DNA of 11,386 bases from a phage, in the sequence record PZ049719.1; one strand, 5' to 3'. Numbering within the stretch: position 1 is the stretch's first letter; each line of letters begins with the position of its first letter. The notes below the pieces were generated by a model. It ran no database searches. It was not told the origin of the DNA and worked only from the letters and a program-made list of their open reading frames with translations. Position numbers and translations under genes: made by a program. Positions 1-11,101 of the stretch are shown here, in pieces.

Positions 1-1094
1 ATGAAACCACGTGTGGCCGCTTCCACGGTTCGCTGTCCTGCCGGCAGTATCCGGTTGCGTATTTCCTCGACGTCTGCACGTGCGGTACGCCAGTCGCGAA
101 GGGCCTGTTGGATCTCCGCACGAACACGCAGCTCTGCCGCATTACGAAGATCACGCGCCTGTTCCGCCCGCCGTGCGGCCGCCAGAACATTGCCTTGGTT
201 ACGATCAAACAAAGGCAGCGGAACAGAGAGGCCGACGAGGTTGACGCGCTCACGCTCGATTTCGTCGTACTGGCTACCGATACTGACGCTTATGTCCGGG
301 TAGCGCTGGCTTCGCTGAAGCCCCAGCTCGGCTTCACTCAAGGCCACTTGGCGCAGAGCCCTACGCATATCGGCACTCTCACGCACGCGCGCCAATAATG
401 CAGATTCGCTAGGCACCTCTGGCAGGTGTTCGAAACTGCCCAGCAAACTGCCAAACTCCGGTGCGTCGGTCCCGAGCAGGCGCGCTAGCATCTGTCGAGC
501 GTTGTCCCATTCCTGGCGTGCTCGCCGCAGGTCCAGTTGTACGGTCGCCAGTTGCATATCGGCGCGCGTCGCCTCCACTGGCGAAACTTTTCCGGCATCG
601 ACCTGTGCGTCGGCGACCTTAGCAGCCCGTTCGGCCAATGACAGAGAGGCCTCGGCCAGTCGCATGCCCTCTTGGGCACGCAAGGCGGCGAAGAAAGCCT
701 GGATCACATCTGCACGCAACCCCTGGCGTCGAAAGTCAAGGTCGGCATCCACCATCGAGCGATTGGCGTCCGCCACACCGATTCGAGCGCCGCGCTTGCC
801 GCCCAACTCGATCGGCTGAGTGATTGTGATTGAGCGAGTCTGGCGATCGGACTGAGTGTCTTCCACCTCGAATCCTAATTCCGGATTTGGAATAACCCCA
901 GCTTGGCGGCGCAGACCGCTCGCGATACCTATCTCCGACCGCGCGGCGGAGAATTCTGGGTTGCGTTCATACGCAAGGGACACGGCTCGCTCCAGTGTCA
1001 GACCTTCTTGCGCGCCCACCTCGAGCGACATCAGTGCCAGCCCGAGCCCAAGCAGGCCGCTGGCAAGCAGATACAAGCGTTTCTTTTGGTACAT
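1..1094 (-). CDS. czcC: Outer membrane efflux protein (OMF/TolC family), CzcC-like component of a heavy-metal RND efflux system; partial, C-terminus lies beyond the window start
   Basis: Minus-strand ATG at 1094..1092 opens a frame with no stop down to base 1; it is absent from the ORF track, presumably because no stop falls inside the window. Translation begins MYQKKRLYLLASGLLGLGLALMSLEVGAQEGLTLERAVSLAYERNPEF..., a signal peptide without a lipobox Cys followed by OMF-like sequence. Divergent from a CzcRS-like two-component system, as in known czcCBA/czcRS loci. The plus-strand ORFs listed over this region are Arg/Ala/Ser-rich antisense artefacts. The czcC symbol rests on context, not a search. 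Confidence 0.65.
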   Translation of the reverse strand, partial: MYQKKRLYLLASGLLGLGLALMSLEVGAQEGLTLERAVSLAYERNPEFSAARSEIGIASGLRRQAGVIPNPELGFEVEDTQSDRQTRSITITQPIELGGKRGARIGVADANRSMVDADLDFRRQGLRADVIQAFFAALRAQEGMRLAEASLSLAERAAKVADAQVDAGKVSPVEATRADMQLATVQLDLRRARQEWDNARQMLARLLGTDAPEFGSLLGSFEHLPEVPSESALLARVRESADMRRALRQVALSEAELGLQRSQRYPDISVSIGSQYDEIERERVNLVGLSVPLPLFDRNQGNVLAAARRAEQARDLRNAAELRVRAEIQQALRDWRTARADVEEIRNRILPAGQRTVEAATRGF

Positions 1095-1225
1095 ACGCAA
1101 CACTGCCGGGCAGTGCCCCCTTCATGTCGATCGCGTTTCTCCAGCCGCGCTAAACCGGCCAGATAGCTGATGGGTAAACGGCGGTGACTTTATATAAGGG
1201 CGGATATCGACCGGGTGACCACAAC

Positions 1226-1241
1226 ATTACGAATTTGTAAT
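1226..1241. promoter_or_regulatory. Palindromic box ATTACGAATTTGTAAT (ATTAC-N6-GTAAT) in the czcC/porin divergent intergenic region; candidate response-regulator operator
   Basis: Read directly from the sequence; half-sites are reverse complements. It lies 132 bp upstream of the czcC-like start and 159 bp upstream of the porin ATG. The GTAAT half-site resembles boxes reported for CopR/CusR-type OmpR-family regulators, but that comparison is from memory. Confidence 0.4.
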
Positions 1242-1272
1242 CCACGGAATACTTGCGGTTGCGTCGCTACAG

Positions 1273-1288
1273 ATTACGAGATCGTCAT
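1273..1288. promoter_or_regulatory. Second related box ATTACGAGATCGTCAT (ATTAC-N6-GTCAT) upstream of the porin gene
   Basis: Same half-site spacing as the 1226..1241 box, with one mismatch in the right arm; 112 bp upstream of the porin ATG. Confidence 0.3.
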
Positions 1289-1399
1289 TTGCCGCTAATC
1301 CTGCGGTCATTTGTAGGGGGAGATCATGGCCAGGCGCTAAAACAAAAAGGCAAGAGACGTCATTCGAACGCTGACATGCCGTATATCAGGAGCATCATC

Positions 1400-2722
1400 A
1401 TGAGCAAAAAGGCCGCCCTTTCACTGACAGCTCTTTCATTGGCACTGGGCGGCGCCTCGGTCTTTGCCCAGTCGGAAACAGCAGCGGAGGGCTTCATCGA
1501 AGGCAGCACGCTATCGCTGATCAATCGCAACTTTTATTTCAATCGAGATTTCCGCGACGGTGAGAACGCAACCGGCAATGGCTACTCTGAGGAATGGGCT
1601 CAAGGGCTGATGGCCTTCTTCGAGTCCGGATATACCCAAGGCTCGGTGGGGATCGGCGTCGACGCCTTCGCCATGCTCGGCCTCAAGCTCGATTCTGGAT
1701 CAGGACGTTCCGGTGCTGGCGGAACCGTCGATCTTCTCCCCTACAATAGCGCCGGCGATGCCGAGGATGACTTTTCTCGAGTAGGGGGGGCCGTGAAAGC
1801 ACGGTTCTTGGGCACCGAGATCAAGGCAGGCGATGTATTTCCCGCTACTCCTGTCGTGCACTTTGGTGACGCACGGCTGCTGCCGGAGTCTTTCAAGGGT
1901 GTCACCGTTGTGAACAACTCGCTGGACGACCTCACCCTCCAGGGCGGCCGCCTGCACGCGATGAGCCAGCCCAATACCAGCAACACGAACGATGACTTCG
2001 TCACGTTTTATGGCGGCGGCGTCGACTCGCCTTGGCTCGGCTACGCAGGCGGCGACTATAGCGTGAACGAAAACCTCAGTCTTAGCCTGTATACCAGCCG
2101 GCTGAAGGATGCCTGGGATCAACATTATTTCGGTGTCTCGGCCACCTATCCACTTTCCGATGCCGTCGTGCTGCTGGGCAGCTTCAACTACTACAAGGCA
2201 ACCGACGAAGGTCGGAAATTGCTGGGCGAGTTTAACAACAGCATCTGGAGTTCCAGTCTGGGTGTCGCCTTCGGCGCGCACACCGTCACGGCGTCGTATC
2301 AGCGAAACAACGGTAACAACGACTTTGACTACTTGCGCCAAGCGGACTCGATCTACCTGAATAACTCCATCCAGTACAGTGATTTCAACTCACCTAAAGA
2401 GCAGTCCTGGATGCTGCGTTATGACCTGAACATGGCGGGTTACGGCATACCTGGGCTTACGTTCATGACTCGCTACGCCCGCGGCTGGGGCGCCGATTAC
2501 AGCAACGCAAATGAGGTATATATGCGCCAAGACGATAACGGCGCGCCTCTGTCCGGACAGAAGCGCTGGGAACGCGACGTCGAAGCACGCTACGTTGTAC
2601 AGACAGGCTCGTTCAAGGACCTCTCTCTGCGGGTGCGCCAGGCTACAACACGGGCGACTGCTTTCGAGTCCGACCTCAATGAGGTTCGATTCATCGCCGA
2701 GTACCCGCTCTCGATCCTGTGA
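1400..2722 (+). CDS. OprD-family (Occ) outer membrane porin
   Basis: The ORF track extends to a TTG at 1253, but the likely start is the ATG at 1400, preceded by AGGAG at 1388..1392. Product begins MSKKAALSLTALSLALGGASVFA (signal peptide) then EGFIEGSTLSLINRNFYFNRDFRDG..., the characteristic N-terminal signature of OprD/Occ porins. Length about 440 aa fits the family. Confidence 0.85.
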   Translation: MSKKAALSLTALSLALGGASVFAQSETAAEGFIEGSTLSLINRNFYFNRDFRDGENATGNGYSEEWAQGLMAFFESGYTQGSVGIGVDAFAMLGLKLDSGSGRSGAGGTVDLLPYNSAGDAEDDFSRVGGAVKARFLGTEIKAGDVFPATPVVHFGDARLLPESFKGVTVVNNSLDDLTLQGGRLHAMSQPNTSNTNDDFVTFYGGGVDSPWLGYAGGDYSVNENLSLSLYTSRLKDAWDQHYFGVSATYPLSDAVVLLGSFNYYKATDEGRKLLGEFNNSIWSSSLGVAFGAHTVTASYQRNNGNNDFDYLRQADSIYLNNSIQYSDFNSPKEQSWMLRYDLNMAGYGIPGLTFMTRYARGWGADYSNANEVYMRQDDNGAPLSGQKRWERDVEARYVVQTGSFKDLSLRVRQATTRATAFESDLNEVRFIAEYPLSIL

Positions 2723-2781
2723 AGCACTACGAGCAACACCACATCTTCTTTTTGTGCTCCCTTGGTTTGAAGATGTGTTTC

Positions 2782-2807
2782 AGGCGCCCGTAGGGCGCCT
2801 TTTTTTG
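2782..2807 (+). terminator. Rho-independent terminator downstream of the porin gene
   Basis: AGGCGCCC-GTAG-GGGCGCCT forms a perfect 8-bp GC-rich stem with a 4-nt loop, immediately followed by a run of seven T, about 60 bp after the porin stop. Confidence 0.75.
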
Positions 2808-2853
2808 CTTAAGTGCACCTCCTTGCGCTGCGGGCCAACCAAATGACAGGTAG

Positions 2854-2869
2854 ATTACAAATTTGCAAG
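2854..2869. promoter_or_regulatory. Related box ATTACAAATTTGCAAG upstream of the response-regulator gene; candidate autoregulatory operator
   Basis: Left half-site ATTAC and the AAATTTG core match the 1226 box; the right half-site is degenerate (GCAAG versus GTAAT). Sits between the porin terminator and the regulator start. Confidence 0.3.
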
Positions 2870-3038
2870 ACAGCCCCGCAGGACTTTTACCGCGTTAAAG
2901 TGCTTCCCGCTTCCCTAGGCTGATCTTTACGGCCAGCCTTCCATGCTGGGCAAGCCGCGTTAGTCTTGGCCTAGTTGCTACATGAATAATTTTTTGGTTC
3001 CGCTTACCGCGCACCTCATTGCTGAGTCATCTGAAAAC

Positions 3039-3713
3039 ATGCGCATTCTGGTTGTAGAAGACGAGATTAAAGCTGCGGAATACCTGCAGCAGGGTCTCAT
3101 CGAGTGTGGTTACACGGTCGATTGCGTAAGTGATGGGCTCGATGGATTCCACCTGGCACTGCAGAACGACTATGACATCGTGCTGCTAGACGTGAATCTG
3201 CCAACCATGGACGGGTGGGAGGTGCTCGAACTCATCAGGCGACGTAAGCAGACACGCGTCATCATGCTGACGGCCAATGGCCGCTTAGAGCAAAAGGTCC
3301 GCGGCCTGGAGTCGGGCGCCGACGACTATATGGTCAAGCCGTTCCAGTTCCCCGAGCTGCTCGCTCGTATCCGAACATTGTTGCGGCGAGGCGAGGCGGT
3401 CGCACTCCCGAGCAACCTGCGTGTAGCCGACCTCGAACTCGACCCGGGCCGGCATCGGGCCTACAGGAGCGGTCAGCGTATTGATCTCACCAGCAAAGAA
3501 TTTGCGTTACTGCATCTGCTCATGCGCCGGACTGGCGAGGTTCTGACGCGCACCGAAATAACCGCCCTGGTGTGGGACATCAACTTCGACTGCGATACCA
3601 ATGTGGTGGATGTTGCAATCCGTCGCCTACGGATGAAGGTGGACGAACCCTTTGGCGATCGCCTGATACACACCATTCGCGGTGTCGGCTACGTGCTGGA
3701 GGCGCGGCCTTGA
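3039..3713 (+). CDS. czcR: OmpR/PhoB-family two-component response regulator, heavy-metal type (CzcR/CopR/CusR-like)
   Basis: Translation MRILVVEDEIKAAEYLQQGLIECGYTVDCVSDGLDGFHLALQNDYDIVLLDVNLPTMDGWEVLELIRRRK... contains the receiver domain with the phospho-acceptor Asp in LLDVNLP, followed by a winged-helix output domain (...IRGVGYVLEARP). The ORF track begins at ATG 2982; I prefer ATG 3039 because this family typically starts MRILVVEDE, though neither start has a strong Shine-Dalgarno. The czcR symbol is by context (czcC-like OMF, porin, overlapping kinase). Confidence 0.8.
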   Translation: MRILVVEDEIKAAEYLQQGLIECGYTVDCVSDGLDGFHLALQNDYDIVLLDVNLPTMDGWEVLELIRRRKQTRVIMLTANGRLEQKVRGLESGADDYMVKPFQFPELLARIRTLLRRGEAVALPSNLRVADLELDPGRHRAYRSGQRIDLTSKEFALLHLLMRRTGEVLTRTEITALVWDINFDCDTNVVDVAIRRLRMKVDEPFGDRLIHTIRGVGYVLEARP

Positions 3714-5083
3714 AGCCACTCAGCCTCGCATCGCGTCTCGCGCTTCAAATCACATTGACCGGCGCCGTCTTGGTCGCGCTGTTGATTGCACTGAGCTACT
3801 GGGTACTTGTGCGCCAACTGGAACTGCGCGCCCAGGAGGAAGTGACGGCCAAGCTCTCGCAGATCGATCATGGACTCCTAGAAGACACCAAAGCCCGTAT
3901 GGGCCGCTCCTGGCAACACGCACTGAGCGATACGGTACTCGGCCATGACAACCTTTCGATTACCGTCATCGGCGATAGAGCCAAATCCCCCATTTTTAGT
4001 ATCGGCCGGTTCGCCCATGCGCCGCAGCAGATGGATCTTGTGAACAGAGACGGTGAATACCTAGGCTGGACCACGGAAGACGGCGTGCAGATGCTAACCG
4101 GGCGCAAGCAAATACAGGTCCCGGGACTGGCTCCAATGACGCTTTTACTTACGCAAGATCGCAGTGCCGATCAACTGCTAGTGGCTGCATTCCTGCGCTC
4201 GGCCTTAGTGACTGTGCCGATGCTGCTGATGTTGATCGGGTTGGCTGGATGGCTAGTTGCTAACAACGGTTTGCGACCGCTTCGCAAGTTTCGGGCCTTG
4301 GCGACAAAGGTATCGACGCAGGATCTGTCACCCCGAATCCGCAGCGATCAGCTTCCACTAGAGCTTCAGGAATTGGCGCACAGCCTCAACGTAATGCTTC
4401 ATCGACTCGATGACGGAGTTCAGCAACTGTCACAATTCTCGGACGATGTGGCCCATGAGTTGAAGACTCCCCTAAATAACCTGATAGGCAAGGCGCAGGT
4501 GACATTGGTGCGTGAGCGAAGCAAGGAGCAATATAGGGAAGTGCTCGAATCGTCGGTCGAAGAGCTCGAACGCATGGATCGAATCGTGTCAGACATGCTG
4601 TTTCTCGCCCAGGCCAGCCACGCCAGCCCAGCACTGAAACTCGAACAACTATCCCTGGGAAGTGAGGCGAATCGCGTCTGTGAATACCTCGAAGTCCTCG
4701 CCGAAGAAGCCGGAGTCGCAACGACGGTAACGGGCGATGCCATAGTTCTAGGAAATCGGCTTATGGTCCAACGGGCCATTTCCAACCTGCTATCCAACGC
4801 GTTGCGGCATTCGAATACTGGCAGCACGGTCGAAATTAAGATACTTGAGAAGGACATAGACATCGTCTCGCTGGCTGTCACCAATCATGGCGCGACTATC
4901 GAATCGGATCATCTCCCGCACCTGTTCGACCGCTTTTACCGCGTTAACGGCATACAACCTCGTGGGGCAGGATTGGGGCTAGCTATTGTCCGTTCAGTGA
5001 TGAACCTCCACAAAGGCCACGTGGCCGTCGCCAGCAAAGACGGTCGGACCACATTCGAACTCACCTTTCCTCGGCACGCCTGA
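3710..5083 (+). CDS. czcS: Heavy-metal sensor histidine kinase (CzcS/CusS/CopS-like)
   Basis: Two predicted transmembrane segments flank a periplasmic region. H-box FSDDVAHELKTPLNNL with the His codon at 4454..4456; N-box LLSNALRHS; DRFYRV; G-box GAGLGLAIVRSVMNLHKGHV. The only plausible start is TTG 3710..3712, overlapping the regulator stop (TGA 3711..3713) and preceded by GGAGG at 3698..3702; the first in-frame ATG lies far downstream and would delete the first transmembrane segment. Confidence 0.8.
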   Translation: MKPLSLASRLALQITLTGAVLVALLIALSYWVLVRQLELRAQEEVTAKLSQIDHGLLEDTKARMGRSWQHALSDTVLGHDNLSITVIGDRAKSPIFSIGRFAHAPQQMDLVNRDGEYLGWTTEDGVQMLTGRKQIQVPGLAPMTLLLTQDRSADQLLVAAFLRSALVTVPMLLMLIGLAGWLVANNGLRPLRKFRALATKVSTQDLSPRIRSDQLPLELQELAHSLNVMLHRLDDGVQQLSQFSDDVAHELKTPLNNLIGKAQVTLVRERSKEQYREVLESSVEELERMDRIVSDMLFLAQASHASPALKLEQLSLGSEANRVCEYLEVLAEEAGVATTVTGDAIVLGNRLMVQRAISNLLSNALRHSNTGSTVEIKILEKDIDIVSLAVTNHGATIESDHLPHLFDRFYRVNGIQPRGAGLGLAIVRSVMNLHKGHVAVASKDGRTTFELTFPRHA

Positions 5084-5231
5084 TTCAAAGTGATACGGCT
5101 TGGTACCCACTCCCCATCAGACCAACGCCATACATTAATCTCATAATGCATGCATGGCCTAATCGAGCGTGGGATGGTCTACAAAAACGATGAGTTTAAA
5201 ACAGAGCCGAATCGGCAGAAAGCGATGGTTA

Positions 5232-5247
5232 ATTACTGCTTTGTAAT
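5232..5247. promoter_or_regulatory. Box ATTACTGCTTTGTAAT (perfect ATTAC-N6-GTAAT half-sites) upstream of the small secreted-protein gene
   Basis: Same architecture as the 1226..1241 box; 71 bp upstream of the ATG at 5318. A 6-bp-stem hairpin (5266..5281, TAAGGG-TCAA-CCCTTA) lies between the box and the start codon. Confidence 0.4.
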
Positions 5248-5317
5248 GCGAAGAACATCTTCTGGTAAGGGTCAACCCTTTAATCTAAAGGTATCTACTA
5301 ACCCAAGAGGGTAACAA

Positions 5318-5635
5318 ATGAACCGCCCTGCTAAAGTAATCCTGCCGTTCTTTCTGGCCGCTGCTTCTTCGCTCGCTATGGCTGAAGACGGAGGGGAACT
5401 AACAATGCAGCGCCTTGAGAGTGCGTCAGTAACAAATCCCACCCTTAAAATACTTGTTAAAGAAGGTAAAGTGCTGAGCATAGCACCTGCAGGGACGACC
5501 GGTACGACCGGAATGATTCAGAGTTATAGAACTAACGGCAAAGTTCAAACGTACGAGATGAAGGTTAAGACCCCTGATGGGAAGATCCATACGGTTGAGT
5601 TTTTGAGCGCCCCGGTTGGTATAAACAACGGCTAA
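5318..5635 (+). CDS. Small secreted/periplasmic protein of unknown function (105 aa, signal peptide plus beta-rich mature domain)
   Basis: ATG 5318 preceded by AGAGGG. N-terminus MNRPAKVILPFFLAAASSLAMA is a typical Sec signal peptide with an A-x-A cleavage site. The mature part (...GKVQTYEMKVKTPDGKIHTVEFLSAPVG) is Thr/Gly/Lys-rich, looks beta-stranded and has no Cys/His metal motif. It sits in a visibly A+T-rich segment between the kinase and the MerR gene. Family not recognised; PepSY-like or DUF2790-like are only guesses. Confidence 0.6.
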   Translation: MNRPAKVILPFFLAAASSLAMAEDGGELTMQRLESASVTNPTLKILVKEGKVLSIAPAGTTGTTGMIQSYRTNGKVQTYEMKVKTPDGKIHTVEFLSAPVGINNG

Positions 5636-6064
5636 CAGGCCAGTAAGCCCCAACGCCATTAATTTAATGCACGCGTCCTCGCTAATGCCAGCGAGAATTC
5701 CACAAGCCTCAACTTCCCGCCCATCACTGCAATTAGCCCGCAGTGATACGAGTTGTCGTTCGAGTGACTGCAGAGCGGTTATCTGCGACTTGACTTGAGA
5801 AATGTGTTCATCGAGCAAGGCATTAACGGCCGTACAAGGCTGGCGAGGGTCATCCTGGTAGCGTTGGAGTGCGTGAATCTCTGGAAGTGACAGATTCAGG
5901 ATTCGGCAGCTCCGGATGAAGGCTAGCCGCTCGCCATGCTTCTCGGTGTAGACACGATAGCCGTTCGCCTGGCGATCAGGCGGTGGCAGCAAGCCCTGCT
6001 GCTCATAGAAGCGGATCGTCTGTGTATCAATCCCTATTAGCCTTGCTAATTGACCAATGCGCAT
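5426..6064 (-). CDS. MerR-family metal-responsive transcriptional regulator (CadR/ZntR/PbrR-like) with an aberrant 3' extension
   Basis: N-terminus MRIGQLARLIGIDTQTIRFYEQQGLLPPPDRQANGYRVYT is the MerR helix-turn-helix; a dimerisation helix follows, with Cys at residues 77, 112 and 121 in the pattern of the CadR/PbrR/ZntR metal site. The ORF has no stop until 5426, giving 212 aa against roughly 135-150 aa typical of this group. The last 65-80 codons lie antisense to the small-protein gene and look non-native (...FTFFNKYFKGGICY). The coordinates are those of the open frame; the true functional 3' end is uncertain. Confidence 0.7.
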   Translation of the reverse strand: MRIGQLARLIGIDTQTIRFYEQQGLLPPPDRQANGYRVYTEKHGERLAFIRSCRILNLSLPEIHALQRYQDDPRQPCTAVNALLDEHISQVKSQITALQSLERQLVSLRANCSDGREVEACGILAGISEDACIKLMALGLTGLLAVVYTNRGAQKLNRMDLPIRGLNLHLVRLNFAVSSITLNHSGRTGRPCRCYAQHFTFFNKYFKGGICY

Positions 6065-6092
6065 CGTGTGAATCCTTATCGGCTCTGCATTA

Positions 6093-6123
6093 TTGACCTT
6101 GTAGTAGCTATAGGGCTTTTAAT
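6093..6123 (+). promoter_or_regulatory. MerR-type promoter/operator: -35 TTGACC, 19-bp spacer with imperfect dyad, -10 TTTAAT
   Basis: TTGACC (6093..6098), then the 19-bp spacer TTGTAGTAGCTATAGGGCT, then TTTAAT (6118..6123). An overlong 19-20 bp spacer carrying a dyad is the hallmark of MerR-family activated promoters, and the arms ACCTTGTAG / CTATAGGGC resemble CadR/PbrR-type operators as I recall them. It lies in the divergent region between the MerR gene (start 6064) and the transporter gene (start 6157). Confidence 0.7.
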
Positions 6124-6156
6124 GACCCCATCTTCGATTTCAAGTGGAGCCGTATC

Positions 6157-7047
6157 ATGAGCAAGTCCGATGGTCCCTGCGGCTGCGATGCGACACCAGC
6201 CGCCGATGCCGGTGTGCAAAATCATTCCGATACGACGGGGCAATGGGTCAGTGTTTACGCCGTGCCCAAGATGGATTGTCCATCAGAAGAGCGAATGATC
6301 CGCTTGGCGCTGAATAGTTTGGACGGAATTCGGAAACTGACTTTTGATTTATCGGACCGTCGATTAGACGTCATGCATGACGGGGCCGTTGAGCCCATAA
6401 CTACAAAGCTGGCGGCGTTAGGGCTAGGCGCCACACTTCAGAAAACCGTCACTGCAGACCCGGAGATGATTAAAGCCGTCGAGAATTCGGCGGAATCTAC
6501 ACAGGAGTCCCGTTCCCTACGTTTACTGTTAGGCATCAACGCCTTCATGTTCGTGGTAGAGATGACTGCTGGTCTGGTCGCCAGGTCCGCGGGTCTGATT
6601 GCCGACTCGCTCGACATGTTCGCTGACGCGGCAGTGTACGGCCTAGCCCTTTATGCGGTGGGGCGTAGCGTCAGCCTGCAGGTGCGTGCTGCACACCTTG
6701 CTGGTGTGCTCCAGCTGATTTTGGCTCTCGGCGTGCTCGTAGAGGTATTTAGACGCTTTGTATTCGGCAGCGAGCCCGAGTCGCTGATAATGATGGCCGT
6801 CGCATTCCTGGCATTGCTCGCCAACATGGGTTGTTTGCTGCTGATTTCCAAACACAGGGAAGGCGGGGCCCACATGAAAGCGAGCTGGATATTTTCCGCC
6901 AATGATGTGGTCATCAACGTGGGCGTCATAGTCGCCGGAGCGCTCGTCGCTTGGAGTGGATCCAACTACCCAGACCTGATTATCGGTACTGTTGTGGGAT
7001 TCATCGTTCTCAACGGCGCTCGGCGTATTCTGGCGCTCAAGAGCTGA
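6157..7047 (+). CDS. CDF-like cation efflux membrane protein with N-terminal metal-binding domain; likely target of the adjacent MerR-family regulator
   Basis: ATG 6157 with GGAG 7 nt upstream. The N-terminal ~100 aa are soluble and carry a CGC motif (DGPCGCDATP) and an HMA-like loop VPKMDCPSEERMIRL. Six hydrophobic segments follow, including a CDF-like acidic motif in TM2 (IADSLDMFADAAVYG). The protein ends right after TM6, so it lacks the usual cytoplasmic C-terminal CDF domain. Confidence 0.75.
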   Translation: MSKSDGPCGCDATPAADAGVQNHSDTTGQWVSVYAVPKMDCPSEERMIRLALNSLDGIRKLTFDLSDRRLDVMHDGAVEPITTKLAALGLGATLQKTVTADPEMIKAVENSAESTQESRSLRLLLGINAFMFVVEMTAGLVARSAGLIADSLDMFADAAVYGLALYAVGRSVSLQVRAAHLAGVLQLILALGVLVEVFRRFVFGSEPESLIMMAVAFLALLANMGCLLLISKHREGGAHMKASWIFSANDVVINVGVIVAGALVAWSGSNYPDLIIGTVVGFIVLNGARRILALKS

Positions 7048-7133
7048 AGGAGCTCCCGTTACAGAAAAAGGGTGTCGTCATGCCTGTAAGCCATCCGGGT
7101 CTAGCGGCGACAGCTAGAACTGGCGACGCAGCT

Positions 7134-7766
7134 TTAGCCATTAACGGATGGTGGGTATTGCAGAACGTGGGCTGCAAAGTCCATCAGCGAGACGAAGCCG
7201 CACTGATCGGCTTTTCCTTCACGCTGTAGGTGGTAGCCACGCATGCCTTGCCCAATTGGACCAAGCATATCGGCTTGCAACGTGTCACCGATCATTGCGA
7301 TGGCGGAGGCTTCGCAGCCAAGCTGTTCGATCATCTGACGATAGATTGCAGGCTCAGGCTTTATTGCCCCAACCTCAAAGCTCCATCCGTAAACATCGAA
7401 CGACGGCAGTAACAGTTTGGCTGGAATCGCATATGGGGCTGCGAGATTGGAGCACAACGCGAGCTTCAGGCCGGCGTTCTTTAGCTGATTTAGCGACTCC
7501 AACGCATCATCGAAAAGGCGAACGCTGGCCAGCTCGGTGAAAAGGTCGCTTTCAAGGCTAGCTAACTCAGAGTTGCTCAACTGCGCACCGAAATAATCGG
7601 CAGCTCCAGCCAAACCCAGATTTCGAGTCATCAGAGTCCGTGCGTCATCCGGCCTTGGTGTTCTGCCCTGAAGCCGCAGGTGCTGCATCAGTTGGCGGAA
7701 AGGATGGCGACGCTCATCTATCTGGAGAAGCGTGCCAAACACATCGAAAACTACTGCTTGTATCAT
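7134..7766 (-). CDS. HAD-superfamily hydrolase, haloacid dehalogenase-like subfamily
   Basis: N-terminus MIQAVVFDVFGTLL carries HAD motif I with the nucleophilic Asp but Phe in place of the second Asp, the pattern seen in L-2-haloacid dehalogenase-type members rather than phosphatases. Later motifs (LALCSN, MIGDTLQADM) fit the fold. It lies 55 bp downstream of the SRAP gene on the same strand. Confidence 0.7.
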   Translation of the reverse strand: MIQAVVFDVFGTLLQIDERRHPFRQLMQHLRLQGRTPRPDDARTLMTRNLGLAGAADYFGAQLSNSELASLESDLFTELASVRLFDDALESLNQLKNAGLKLALCSNLAAPYAIPAKLLLPSFDVYGWSFEVGAIKPEPAIYRQMIEQLGCEASAIAMIGDTLQADMLGPIGQGMRGYHLQREGKADQCGFVSLMDFAAHVLQYPPSVNG

Positions 7767-7821
7767 GCCAGTACCACTACCGTTGGAGGCGAACCGACCA
7801 CCCGAAGAGCGATGCCGCCCC

Positions 7822-8478
7822 TCAGTTTTCTGAACTGGATTTCTTCAGAGGTGGCACGAAGAAGATGCGTCTTTGCGGGGGCGCTATCAGGATATCTGTC
7901 GACTTGATGCTTGTGCCTTTTCGACGCCTTGTTTTGCCGTTCTTGTCGACCGCCAGCAGATCACCGGTCGCGACAGCAATGTCGAGTGCCTGCTTTACGC
8001 GAAGCTCGTCAGCCATGGTGTAGTTGGTCAATCCGCTCATCAGACCCAAAAAAGGTTGCCGTTCTACCTCCCATAGGCCCGCTATCCCTAGCAGCCGCCC
8101 ATCGGCACGGGAAATTCGAGTAGGAATAGCCTTGCCTGTTCGCCAGTCGGGCTCATAGATCGCCACCGCAGGGATGATGCAGTGCTGTGCCTTCTTCCAT
8201 GCCTCCCTGAATGACCGCTTGACCGAGGCCGTCTCAGAACGGGCGTTGTAGGTGGACCGTGCCAGCTTTTTGTCGGCCCAGAAGGGCAGGAGCCCAAACA
8301 CTCCCACCTCAGCTTCAAATGGCAACACGGCGTCATCGTACGGGTCGACATTGCGAGGCTTGCGCAGGAACGGCCCGGCATAACCTGGCCACAATTCGAG
8401 CTTCTCCTGAGCGTCGAACTCGACACCAAACTCTTCTTGGAGACGCTCTGGGGTAGGGGCTTCGTAACGACTGCACAT
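7822..8478 (-). CDS. SOS response-associated peptidase (SRAP / YedK / DUF159 family; abasic-site processing protein)
   Basis: Start reassigned to the minus-strand ATG at 8478 (ORF track: 8526) so that the protein begins MCSRYE, placing the family's catalytic Cys at position 2. A GAGAGGTG Shine-Dalgarno lies just upstream. Further family-like motifs are YNARSETA and SFREAWKKAQHCIIPA. Confidence 0.75.
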   Translation of the reverse strand: MCSRYEAPTPERLQEEFGVEFDAQEKLELWPGYAGPFLRKPRNVDPYDDAVLPFEAEVGVFGLLPFWADKKLARSTYNARSETASVKRSFREAWKKAQHCIIPAVAIYEPDWRTGKAIPTRISRADGRLLGIAGLWEVERQPFLGLMSGLTNYTMADELRVKQALDIAVATGDLLAVDKNGKTRRRKGTSIKSTDILIAPPQRRIFFVPPLKKSSSEN

Positions 8479-8628
8479 AACACACCTCTCATTCGTCACT
8501 GTGCTGCTCGGTGTTGCGGCCCGCAACGCCTTGGCGAGTGGGATCTATGATTAGGACAATCTCTCGCGGCACCCCGCTTACTGAGTACATCCTTATACTG
8601 AACGCCTGCCTCCGACGATGGTGAATGC

Positions 8629-9585
8629 ATGTCGATAGATCAGCCCCTCCCTTTCTGGCGCAGAGCAGGAACATTTCTATGGGACTCAGTGCGTGAGGAC
8701 TGTGGGTATCCTGCAACGCTCATGAAGCTGATTAAGAGCCCAGTCAAACTTAATTCGCCCATCCAGGAAACAGCAAAAGGTATTGGCGCAGGAGCGGTTG
8801 TTAGGTGGCACGACTTCGGATCTCTTATTTATGAGCGCGGGATATATCGCGACAAGCTGAATGGATGGACCCACTGCCGCACCTATGGTCGGTATGGCTC
8901 GACTAGCATCGAATGCGCCCCACTATTGCGCGTTGGCAGCGAGATGCAGATCCAACGGTGGCGGTGCGATATCCAACAGGTAGATGGCTTCTCCGCGTCG
9001 AAATCCGAACTCAAGGAGTTCGCCACCATGGATGACATGGTGGTAAGGAACTCACCCGAGATGATCGACGAGATATCTCCGGCGAAGCTGGCGAAGAATC
9101 TGGCCTGGGATGAAATTCGGATCATCAGCCACGTCGATCACGATTATTTCGCCACTTGGGCTTGGGACGGACGCGTCTTTCTGATGAACTCCGGCGGTTC
9201 GCATCACTTCGCAGCTGCCAAGTACATCGCGGCGCGGCTTGAACAGCCGGTTGAGCTGACCGGAACCTATAAGATCTACGGGTTATGTGAGCAGGCTATA
9301 ACAGAACTCAGGCGTGAATACGGCATGTTCGTGTTGTCGCATGAGCCTGATGCTTGGTTGGGGTTCAACGAAGCTATGGCTCGCTTCAAGGCAACGTATT
9401 ATTGGAAGACATTGCCCCGCCCGCACAACCACCAGCGTTGCGCAATTTTTTTACCGCTAAAGGAGAAGCGCTCTGCCATGGTTGCGAGGATTCTCAAGGA
9501 AAACAATTTCCAGGACCTAGGCGCTTACTTGGCTGGCCTAGCTGCCCAGTCACAAGCGGTCATCAACAAAGTCAATCCGCCATAA
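8629..9585 (+). CDS. Hypothetical protein, 318 aa, no family assignable by inspection
   Basis: Long open frame with non-repetitive composition, divergent from the SRAP gene and convergent with the relaxase-like ORF. Contains a His/Asp-rich stretch (IISHVDHDYFATWAWDGRVFLMNSGGSHHF) that could be a metal or catalytic site. The start is uncertain: ATG 8629 has a weak GGTGA upstream, and an alternative ATG lies at 8722. Located in the more A+T-rich islet. Confidence 0.55.
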   Translation: MSIDQPLPFWRRAGTFLWDSVREDCGYPATLMKLIKSPVKLNSPIQETAKGIGAGAVVRWHDFGSLIYERGIYRDKLNGWTHCRTYGRYGSTSIECAPLLRVGSEMQIQRWRCDIQQVDGFSASKSELKEFATMDDMVVRNSPEMIDEISPAKLAKNLAWDEIRIISHVDHDYFATWAWDGRVFLMNSGGSHHFAAAKYIAARLEQPVELTGTYKIYGLCEQAITELRREYGMFVLSHEPDAWLGFNEAMARFKATYYWKTLPRPHNHQRCAIFLPLKEKRSAMVARILKENNFQDLGAYLAGLAAQSQAVINKVNPP

Positions 9586-9625
9586 TTAGGGTAGTCCAGA
9601 CCTCAGCGCAACTATCCAATGATAG

Positions 9626-10870
9626 CTAGTGATCATCCTGACTCTCACAAAGTTTGAGATTGGGATTATCCAGCATCTCAGTTGTGAATACGTCGCCGGG
9701 TTTTTTGAGCATATAACCCTTCAGTGTTTTCGTTTTACGAGGTCCAAAGACTTCGCACGTCCAGATGTTATGTCCGTTGCTCTTCTTAACGTGAAGCTTC
9801 AGCTTTTCGAACGACTTTTGGACCTGCAGCCATGGCTGTCCTTCGCCAGCCCTCGCTGAGAAGAGGGTCGGATGCTCTTGGGCATACCTTCTGAATATTT
9901 CAGGAGTCACCAGAAAAGCCGTGCCGTTGACGGTGTGAACCTTGGCTTTTGCATCATTGATAATGATCTTGTGGGTTCCTACACCCACTTTTAGCCAGTG
10001 CATGAAAAGGTGACCTAGCGTGTCGCCGATCGGGCCAGCGATGGTAGCGGTCGCGGCAGTGTCTGACTGAGCTTCGACCTCGGACGCCGCCGGCATCGCC
10101 GGGGCGGGTACCGAATTGGTCGGCGCGTCACGCATATCCATCAGATCCAGAAGGTAGTCCGTATCATCTACCTCATCGGGTTGCGGTCCATGGTCACTTG
10201 CGGGTTCGTCCCCTTGAGGCTCTGCCGCAACGGCATCGCCGCCCCCGGCAGTAAGGCTGGGCTTTTCCTCCTGCGCTTCGGAAGCTGCGGCAGGGGCTGC
10301 TTCTTCGTTGAGGACTTGCACCGAGCCGCCAAAAGGCTCCGGGCGGTCTTCGCCAGCTGCCCATATGAGTGAAGGTGAAACTCTCAAGAACGTGAATGCG
10401 TTCTTCCATCCCGTAGGGCTCAGGATTTCGGCATCCCAAATAGCTTTGCCAGCAGGATTCGCAACAATCAGGCCGTTATCCTGAAAGACATTGAAGAGAG
10501 TGGAGTTGCGGTCCGGAACACCCTCAATCCCTTGGCTGAGGAGGTGAGCACGCAGCCGATCCGAAACGGTCTTGCTGACCAGCCAGATCGCATCGGCCGT
10601 GATCCAGCCATCGGAAGCGTCTGGCTGATTCAACTTGAGCTCGTTCTTCACCAGGTAGCGCAGCCCATCGAGGAGCTGACGCTGAAGAGTGTTACGCGGT
10701 GCTGCCACAGCTCTGTCTGGATTGCCGCCAAGCTCATGGGCGACCGACGCCTGGTCAGACCTTACAACGATGTCCCCAAGAACCCCAGCGTGCTCAAACT
10801 GGCCAGCCAGTACGTACAGCAAAGCACCCCAGAGCTCTGGATTGGATGAGATCCATCCGATACCATTCAA
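9626..10870 (-). CDS. Hypothetical protein with a long acidic Ala/Pro-rich linker; possibly a 5'-truncated remnant of an ICE-type relaxase (TraI_2_C-like C-terminal region)
   Basis: The frame opens with TTG directly after an in-frame stop at 10871..10873, and the first internal ATG is about 245 codons in, so an intact N-terminus is doubtful. The upstream sequence in the same frame translates to non-protein-like text. A low-complexity segment (about 10000..10300) separates an N-terminal region from a basic C-terminal domain (...WTCEVFGPRKTKTLKGYMLKKPGDVF...). The resemblance to conjugative relaxase C-termini is a recollection, not a search result. Confidence 0.4.
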   Translation of the reverse strand: MNGIGWISSNPELWGALLYVLAGQFEHAGVLGDIVVRSDQASVAHELGGNPDRAVAAPRNTLQRQLLDGLRYLVKNELKLNQPDASDGWITADAIWLVSKTVSDRLRAHLLSQGIEGVPDRNSTLFNVFQDNGLIVANPAGKAIWDAEILSPTGWKNAFTFLRVSPSLIWAAGEDRPEPFGGSVQVLNEEAAPAAASEAQEEKPSLTAGGGDAVAAEPQGDEPASDHGPQPDEVDDTDYLLDLMDMRDAPTNSVPAPAMPAASEVEAQSDTAATATIAGPIGDTLGHLFMHWLKVGVGTHKIIINDAKAKVHTVNGTAFLVTPEIFRRYAQEHPTLFSARAGEGQPWLQVQKSFEKLKLHVKKSNGHNIWTCEVFGPRKTKTLKGYMLKKPGDVFTTEMLDNPNLKLCESQDDH

Positions 10871-11042
10871 TCAATGTACCCATAGAACGCATACGCGGAA
10901 TTCGTGTGTGCGTTGATTCGTGAGCGGCAGAGAGAGGGCATTCATTGGTGAAGCAGCGCTGCGGGGTTTAAGAGTGCTCAGCGAGCCTGCTCGAAGAGCC
11001 GGCGCCGTGCTGAAGCACGTGAACCGAAACGCCGCTCTGGCC

Positions 11043-11101
11043 CGGTAGCTGCCAGTCGTCACCGGCGGCAATCGGCCAAATGCTGCCTCCGGCAGCTACC
11101 G
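11043..11101. repeat. Perfect 11-bp inverted repeat (CGGTAGCTGCC / GGCAGCTACCG) separated by a 37-nt spacer
   Basis: Arms at 11043..11053 and 11091..11101 are exact reverse complements. It sits between the EamA gene stop (11134) and the relaxase-like ORF start (10870), at the edge of the lower-GC islet. No T/U run follows on either strand, so it is not a canonical intrinsic terminator. Confidence 0.5.

Follow-up and report, generated by a model that had tools for sequence, protein, structure and literature searches.

An open reading frame (ORF) that begins with TTG directly behind an in-frame stop codon raises the question of whether it is a complete gene with an unusual start or the surviving part of a longer one. 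Such an ORF of 414 codons lies near the right end of the 11,386-nt stretch of the phage sequence record PZ049719.1 analyzed here as a whole (hereafter the window, to which all coordinates given without a locus number refer; loci compared with it are numbered with the prefix L). The window is 98.3–99.1% identical to chromosomes of the Stutzerimonas stutzeri group, and exactly the same 414-aa protein occurs in many Stutzerimonas genomes, being recorded in 185 index blocks, 24 of which have contigs longer than 1 Mb, including complete genomes of 4.5–4.8 Mb; the ORF is therefore no assembly artefact. The initial annotation, based on the letters of the window, proposed a 5'-truncated relaxase gene of the kind found in integrating conjugative elements (ICEs). 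With a probability of about 93%, we consider the ORF, designated mobH' below, to be a non-functional 5'-truncated remnant of a MOBH-family relaxase gene, i.e., an ordinary relaxase pseudogene.

Relaxase identity of mobH' and its truncation point

The search with the TraI_2 and TraI_2_C models revealed both relaxase domains in the mobH' product, the former as its C-terminal remainder only and the latter complete (Table 1). The C-terminal domain also matched the solved TraI_2_C structure (PDB 2IPQ, E 3e-10). The NCBIfam MobH model aligned over its positions 181–340 of 340 with a score of 135.7, which is below the cutoff of 200, and the end of the relaxase-class model TIGR03760 was matched as well. 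Residues 1–184 have an isoelectric point (pI) of 5.1 and are separated by the acidic linker from the basic residues 285–414 (pI 9.55), in agreement with the succession of a folded region, an acidic linker and a basic C-terminal domain noticed in the initial annotation. Relaxases of the MOBH family were described to have 50–200 aa of disordered middle part between their TraI_2 relaxase domain and TraI_2_C (Heilers et al., 2019; PMC6736028).

Nearly all of the best 120 of 2214 homologues of the mobH' protein, which were inspected for length, are 557–664 aa long; its full-length relatives comprise about 600–625 aa, and a 625-aa MobH of Pseudomonas aeruginosa shares 84% identity with it. In an alignment of eight sequences (A1) the homology of the relatives starts at residue 11 of the ORF. 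The truncation point, which was to be sought by alignment to a full-length relaxase, was found by comparison with the intact mobH (609 aa, WP_236451696.1) on the S. stutzeri XX1 plasmid NZ_CP091175.1 (L012). This gene differs from the window by 1 nt of 1217 over positions 9626–10842 and by a single amino acid across codons 205–609, and beyond 10842, within codon Y205 of 609, the two sequences diverge abruptly. The same end point emerged from the comparisons with L007, L009–L011 and L013. Consequently, mobH' is short of 613 nt, which correspond to codons 1–204 and a portion of codon 205, and the proposal of a 5'-truncated ICE-type relaxase is upheld by the Pfam and NCBIfam matches together with the 99.9% identity to an intact mobH.

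The lost part comprises the catalytic motifs. The alternative 3H motif, PASENHHH, occupies residues 78–85 of the L012 MobH, and its HD motif, LLHDIGK, also falls in the deleted part and is not present in the ORF. Both motifs are essential for cleavage of the origin of transfer (oriT), and TraI_2_C alone does not cleave it (Heilers et al., 2019; PMC6736028). The mobH' product is therefore predicted to be unable to nick an oriT or to start transfer, because the deleted part encodes the 3H and HD metal-binding motifs required by the MOBH cleavage centre. Like TraI from the gonococcal genetic island in Neisseria gonorrhoeae, the biochemical prototype of MOBH, the ORF retains the end of TraI_2, the middle region and TraI_2_C; unlike this prototype, it has neither the HD nor the alternative 3H motif needed to cleave oriT (PMC6736028). 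Thus, of the features characterizing the family, mobH' possesses the linker followed by TraI_2_C and the homology to mobH over the retained part, and it has no complete TraI_2 domain, HHH motif or HD motif. Devoid of the defining catalytic features of the MOBH family, it should therefore be filed as a relaxase pseudogene and not as a relaxase.

Table 1. Features at and around the truncated relaxase gene, ordered by position in the window.
Feature	Coordinates	Strand	Description and basis
tcmP, 3' end	7822–8076	−	Residues 354–437 of 437; 90% identity to P. luteola TcmP (tblastn); fused in frame to SRAP'
SRAP', 5' part	8068–8526	−	Residues 1–153 of 229; left end of the block; 100% identical to full SRAP in L022 (S. 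kunmingensis); Pfam SRAP profile positions 1–140 of 214 only
DUF6685 gene, intact	8629–9585	+	Pfam PF20390, positions 1–206 of 207; adjoins full-length mobH in L009–L012
mobH' ORF (truncated relaxase)	9626–10870	−	414 codons, TTG start, stop codon included; ORF listing
mobH-derived part	9626–10842	−	Codons 205 (partial) to 609 and stop; near-identity to L012 mobH
TraI_2_C domain	9653–10018	−	mobH' residues 285–406; complete, basic; Pfam PF07515, positions 2–125 of 126, E 1.4e-47
Acidic Ala/Pro-rich linker	10019–10318	−	mobH' residues 185–284; pI 4.05; 22 D/E against 2 K/R; 21 Ala, 11 Pro
TraI_2 domain, C-terminal remainder	10439–10855	−	mobH' residues 6–144, without HHH and HD motifs; Pfam PF07514, positions 184–324 of 324, E 1.5e-47
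Foreign leader	10843–10873	−	In-frame TGA, TTG start and first 9–10 codons (MNGIGWISS-N); junction alignment diverges fully from L012 past 10842
Decayed serine recombinase (resolvase) gene relic	10889–10963	+	Antisense, just upstream of the TTG at 10870; tblastn and blastn
Imperfect palindrome	11039–11078		Right end of the DNA common to all relic-carrying genomes; flank comparison

Origin of the relic in a conjugative element

Nucleotide homology to intact elements is limited to positions 8067–10842, a block of about 2.8 kb that contains SRAP', the DUF6685 gene and mobH' and is cut inside genes at both ends, in SRAP on the left and in mobH on the right. In intact elements, represented by the P. 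aeruginosa contigs L009–L011 and the XX1 plasmid L012, TraC/TraU/TraG_N genes are followed in turn by integrase, DUF3742, mobH, DUF6685, SRAP and cargo, and the succession and orientation of mobH'–DUF6685–SRAP' in the window agree with this. As DUF6685 and SRAP are arranged as beside full-length mobH, the proposal that mobH' marks a decayed conjugative element is upheld. The relic stems from a PFGI-1/ICEclc-type integrating conjugative element or plasmid of the S. stutzeri group. The resemblance to the XX1 plasmid extends from the near-identical codons 205–609 to the same downstream DUF6685 gene and the start of SRAP; unlike the plasmid copy, mobH' is devoid of codons 1–204 and of the genes for DUF3742, integrase and type IV secretion situated upstream of the former. 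Intact relatives in the PFGI-1/ICEclc/PAPI-1 class have TIGR03756 and TIGR03757 proteins, TraG_N, a conjugative ATPase and an integrase near mobH, whereas only the 2.8-kb internal fragment is retained in the window. The DUF6685 gene consistently accompanies mobH and SRAP in the intact elements L009–L012, and L008 has a DUF7830/DUF6035 gene instead.

At the left end of the block, the homology to L010 ends at 8067. The 234-codon 'SRAP' ORF located here (7822–8526, minus strand) is an in-frame chimera of SRAP residues 1–153 and the 84 C-terminal residues of a three-Cys-motif partner protein (TcmP), and in S. kunmingensis the native continuation of the intact 229-aa SRAP is kept at the same place.

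No gene for transfer (mating-pair formation or coupling) and no element integrase was detected in the window or among the called genes within 10 kb on either side in six genomes. The integrase, tRNA gene or attachment (att) repeats that the initial annotation suggested looking for in the flanks did not turn up either: neither the window nor eight loci contained a tRNA gene according to ARAGORN, searching the window for repeats returned short chance pairs and no plausible att repeats, and a tyrosine recombinase of 206 aa encoded nearby was rejected as the integrase of the element, sharing only 23% identity with it. Rfam gave no match in the window at gathering thresholds. The further proposal, that a decayed element explains the composition of this islet, holds only in part: the block spans only about 2.8 kb and accounts for just one of the low-GC dips, it has a GC content of 55.4% against 53.9–58.5% in its neighbours (53.9% from czcS to tcmP', 57.7% in the left part), and the strongest low-GC dip, at about 5000–5750, lies outside it.

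The 5' junction and the proposed mechanism of truncation

The segment 10843–11078 is common to all genomes carrying the relic and is not mobH sequence. It supplies the start of the ORF: as had been noticed from the letters, TGA at 10873–10871 stands in frame directly before TTG at 10870–10868 (…CAT TGA TTG AAT GGT… on the minus strand), and the earliest in-frame ATG is codon 244, close to the 'about 245 codons' initially given. The TTG 'start' is a matter of chance, as are the first 10 codons: within the foreign DNA it happens to be the first start-type codon behind a stop.

Upstream of the TTG, the relic of a resolvase gene was recognized by its 18-residue core, AYAEFVCALIRERQREGI, which coincides with residues 117–134 of the pCAR1 resolvase (WP_011078028.1) in 16 of 18 positions (tblastn, E 2e-8), with in-frame stops nearby. 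About 70 nt of the relic are about 78% identical to genes of 'recombinase family protein' in 34 plasmids (blastn). The alignment consists of this core and weak flanks only; its continuation into mobH' (10694–10873) was dismissed as a spurious gapped extension, the credible part being limited to approximately 10889–10963. The core likens the relic to TnpR-type resolvase genes of Pseudomonas plasmids and Tn3-family transposons, such as that of the pCAR1 recombinase; unlike those genes, it is a short piece ridden with stops, and no transposase gene or terminal repeat was identified with it. A pair of Tn3-type resolvase and transposase genes is located just upstream of DUF3742–mobH in L009.

The junction shows that mobH was broken and that its remainder became linked to DNA of a resolvase-carrying element. 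In this rearrangement codons 1–204 and a portion of codon 205 were lost, and the rest now adjoins the DNA with the resolvase relic. Presumably, a resolvase-carrying transposon inserted first and an adjacent deletion followed, or else illegitimate recombination was involved.

Another possibility is that the break goes back to recombination, either site-specific or at a hot spot, connected with the palindrome at 11039–11078, in which case mobH', the resolvase relic and the palindrome would form a portable junction instead of the product of transposon insertion and deletion. In its favour, flanks of at least seven different kinds meet the palindrome at one and the same base, a second copy in inverted orientation delimits an 8.1-kb insert, the gene of the 206-aa tyrosine recombinase starts 58 nt from one junction, and palindrome-like copies occur at module borders on plasmids. 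Against it, the break at 10842 lies 196 nt from the palindrome with the resolvase relic between them, and two distinct junction events therefore took place; besides, no palindrome-like sequence was found in the intact element segments examined. We regard this origin of the break as improbable and retain transposon insertion with adjacent deletion, or illegitimate recombination, as the probable course of events.

Age, spread and constraint of the relic

Five of six S. stutzeri chromosomes match the segment 8067–11078 without any difference, and the sixth has three differences, all of them in the resolvase segment. Over the approximately 7.4 kb reaching from czcS up to 11078 (about 3714–11078), the same six chromosomes show about 10 or fewer differences per genome, whereas the oprD/czcC side (1–3713) differs by 2–7%, and czcR by about 7% in two genomes. 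The region is thus a mosaic, and its recombination boundary lies in or near czcR/czcS. S. kunmingensis and S. frequens carry the block with 99.9% identity. Its non-coding DNA is as invariant as the coding one, and the identity therefore reflects recent spread and not selection. Apparently, the 2.8-kb SRAP'–DUF6685–mobH' fragment spread between Stutzerimonas genomes and species inside the near-invariant czcS–cadR–czcD haplotype of about 7.4 kb.

Substitutions were counted in two comparisons. Three variants of the truncated allele (A1501, L031 and S. kunmingensis L032) differ from the window by 4 nonsynonymous and 1 synonymous changes (dN/dS about 1.25), and one of these changes, L97R, affects a position that is invariant in the alignment A1. 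The window and its intact relative L013 are separated by 2 nonsynonymous and 16 synonymous changes (dN/dS about 0.04), and the two sets of counts differ significantly (Fisher p = 0.008), in line with relaxed constraint on the truncated copies. The same 90% cluster also includes decay products of 231 aa, 333 aa and 393 aa, the last with a frameshifted C-terminus, as well as a separately truncated form of 448 aa. Together with the near-invariance of the block, these comparisons indicate that the mobH' frame is open through the youth of the relic and not through maintenance.

Several points weigh against regarding mobH' as a mere pseudogene. The substitution counts of the truncated alleles and of the intact relative are small, with 5 and 18 events. 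All 414 codons are in an intact frame, and 145 contigs encode the identical protein, which at face value might hint at maintenance. Since the upstream EamA gene points in the same direction, read-through transcription into the ORF is possible, and an upstream 66-codon ORF stops one base before the TTG, an arrangement that might permit coupled translation. Finally, public annotation lists the frame not as a pseudogene but as an ordinary coding sequence (CDS) for a 'helicase/relaxase domain-containing protein'.

Alternatively, the truncated gene might be expressed and kept as a stand-alone protein, for instance as a decoy that would bind a coupling protein or a relaxosome partner and interfere with incoming related elements; the intact frame, the occurrence of the identical protein on 145 contigs and in several species, the completeness of its TraI_2_C domain and the location on the strand of the EamA gene would suit such a role. 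Its identity among genomes is, however, explained by youth, as mobH' is 1 nt away from an intact plasmid gene and resides in a 3-kb block that is invariant including its non-coding parts. The excess of nonsynonymous changes, with L97R at an invariant position, and the further shortened alleles of 393, 333 and 231 aa also speak against retention. The promoter scan upstream of the TTG, itself part of accidental foreign sequence, detected no sigma-70-like site, with counts no higher than in shuffled sequence, and no naturally short family appeared among the best 120 of 2214 homologues. Considering these facts, we find a maintained stand-alone protein highly improbable.

To two further explanations practically no credence can be given. 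A complete protein of another family with a genuine conserved TTG start could be suspected from the 414-aa CDS that gene callers and NCBI annotate, but both Pfam matches are relaxase domains, contrary to what the initial annotation named as grounds for rejecting its own proposal (another family or no relaxase similarity), TraI_2 begins only at profile position 184, the first 10 codons are without homology to any relative, the DNA departs abruptly at 10842 from a 99.9% identical full-length gene, and the TTG is 'conserved' only through descent of every copy from one deletion event. A split or frameshifted mobH with its N-terminal half surviving nearby in another frame or position is contradicted by the searches upstream, as tblastn with residues 1–215 of intact MobH found only the mobH' ORF itself in the window and 10 kb upstream in L001, which bears out the absence of an N-terminal catalytic domain stated in the initial annotation, and blastn and tblastx comparison of four different upstream flanks with intact elements gave no match to the mobH 5' part, DUF3742 or the element integrase.

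Implications for annotation

The relic is not new in kind: the exact protein is already present in public databases, under the names 'TraI domain-containing protein' and 'helicase/relaxase domain-containing protein', and it is a fragment of the well-characterized MOBH/MobH family. The A1501 allele (ABP81040.1) is labelled 'Predicted HD-superfamily hydrolase' in one source, though the HD motif belongs to the missing part. Well over a hundred contigs, including that of the model strain A1501, list an ordinary protein here, and flagging it as a relaxase pseudogene is warranted; the flag would stop MOB typing and ICE finders from counting mobH' as evidence of a mobilisable element. The relic also dates and delimits a small scar of a conjugative element, recently dispersed among Stutzerimonas species, beside the czc/cad metal-resistance genes. 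The relic itself yields no new biology, and the adjacent palindrome is the only feature that might repay more work.

The palindrome and its variable flanks

The palindrome, TGGCCGATTGCCGCC-GGTGACGACT-GGCAGCTACCGGGCCA, has a 40-nt core with 15-nt arms and a 10-nt spacer and reaches about 55–60 nt with an outer arm. Other copies were located in L002 (1664–1706), L018 (5762–5801), L019 (4996–5035) and L021 (5510–5549). Exactly beyond it the Stutzerimonas flanks part in at least seven ways: the window's own flank with EamA and the 206-aa tyrosine recombinase; an 8.1-kb metabolic segment, at the far end of which the second, inverted copy is situated; a directly adjoining gene of the pyruvate kinase family (Pfam PK); a gene of the lactamase_B fold; a different, uncharacterised flank in S. 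kunmingensis L025; an integron-cassette-like array; and an insertion sequence (IS) with a GGCC duplication.

The recombinase gene of the first flank (L001 7847–8542) lies about 1.5–2.2 kb past the right end of the window, and the junction from which it starts 58 nt away is the left one of a 1.9-kb EamA-carrying insert. A 25-residue relic of a similar recombinase gene adjoins the SRAP break in the XX1 plasmid (L012 11800–11874). The IS was found at the palindrome edge in L022 (4928–6530), L026 and L032, which belong to S. kunmingensis and a Pseudomonas metagenome-assembled genome; it encodes a 461-aa transposase with DUF772 and DDE_Tnp_1 domains and is flanked by the GGCC duplication.

Intergenic sites of unrelated Pseudomonas genomes share an identical, better-conserved version of the palindrome, in which 13 of 15 arm positions are paired and the spacer measures 10 nt. 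Palindrome-like copies also adjoin the accessory load of the plasmid pQKH54, follow just past an integrase–integrase–small-ORF operon in an S. stutzeri plasmid, and stand just past toprJ1 of a tmexCD1-toprJ1 cluster. On low odds, the palindrome may serve an undescribed system of site-specific recombination as its crossover or attachment site, and this system would swap gene modules beside the relic, the mobH'–resolvase–palindrome block then acting as a portable junction between Stutzerimonas species; a small tyrosine recombinase or an element similar to GInt, SE or Tn554 is a possible partner.

Two other identities were rejected. As a repetitive extragenic palindromic (REP) element the palindrome would be too rare, its core matching 12 stretches in 185,579 species genomes, with no extra copies in 356 kb of local loci; an oriT of the element was discarded on finding no similar sequence in the intact element segments L008–L013. 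Rfam gave no match around the palindrome at E up to 1, and no matching att site could be established for it in the literature on GInt and SE. As regards a stable hairpin, the window copy folded no better than shuffled sequences (z −0.67), and the L002 copy folded better (z −4.8). In L031, an S. stutzeri draft genome, the variable flank adjoining the palindrome (about 2700–2795) is a run of small same-strand ORFs that ends in an integron attC-like sequence (TAACAAG…GTTAG).

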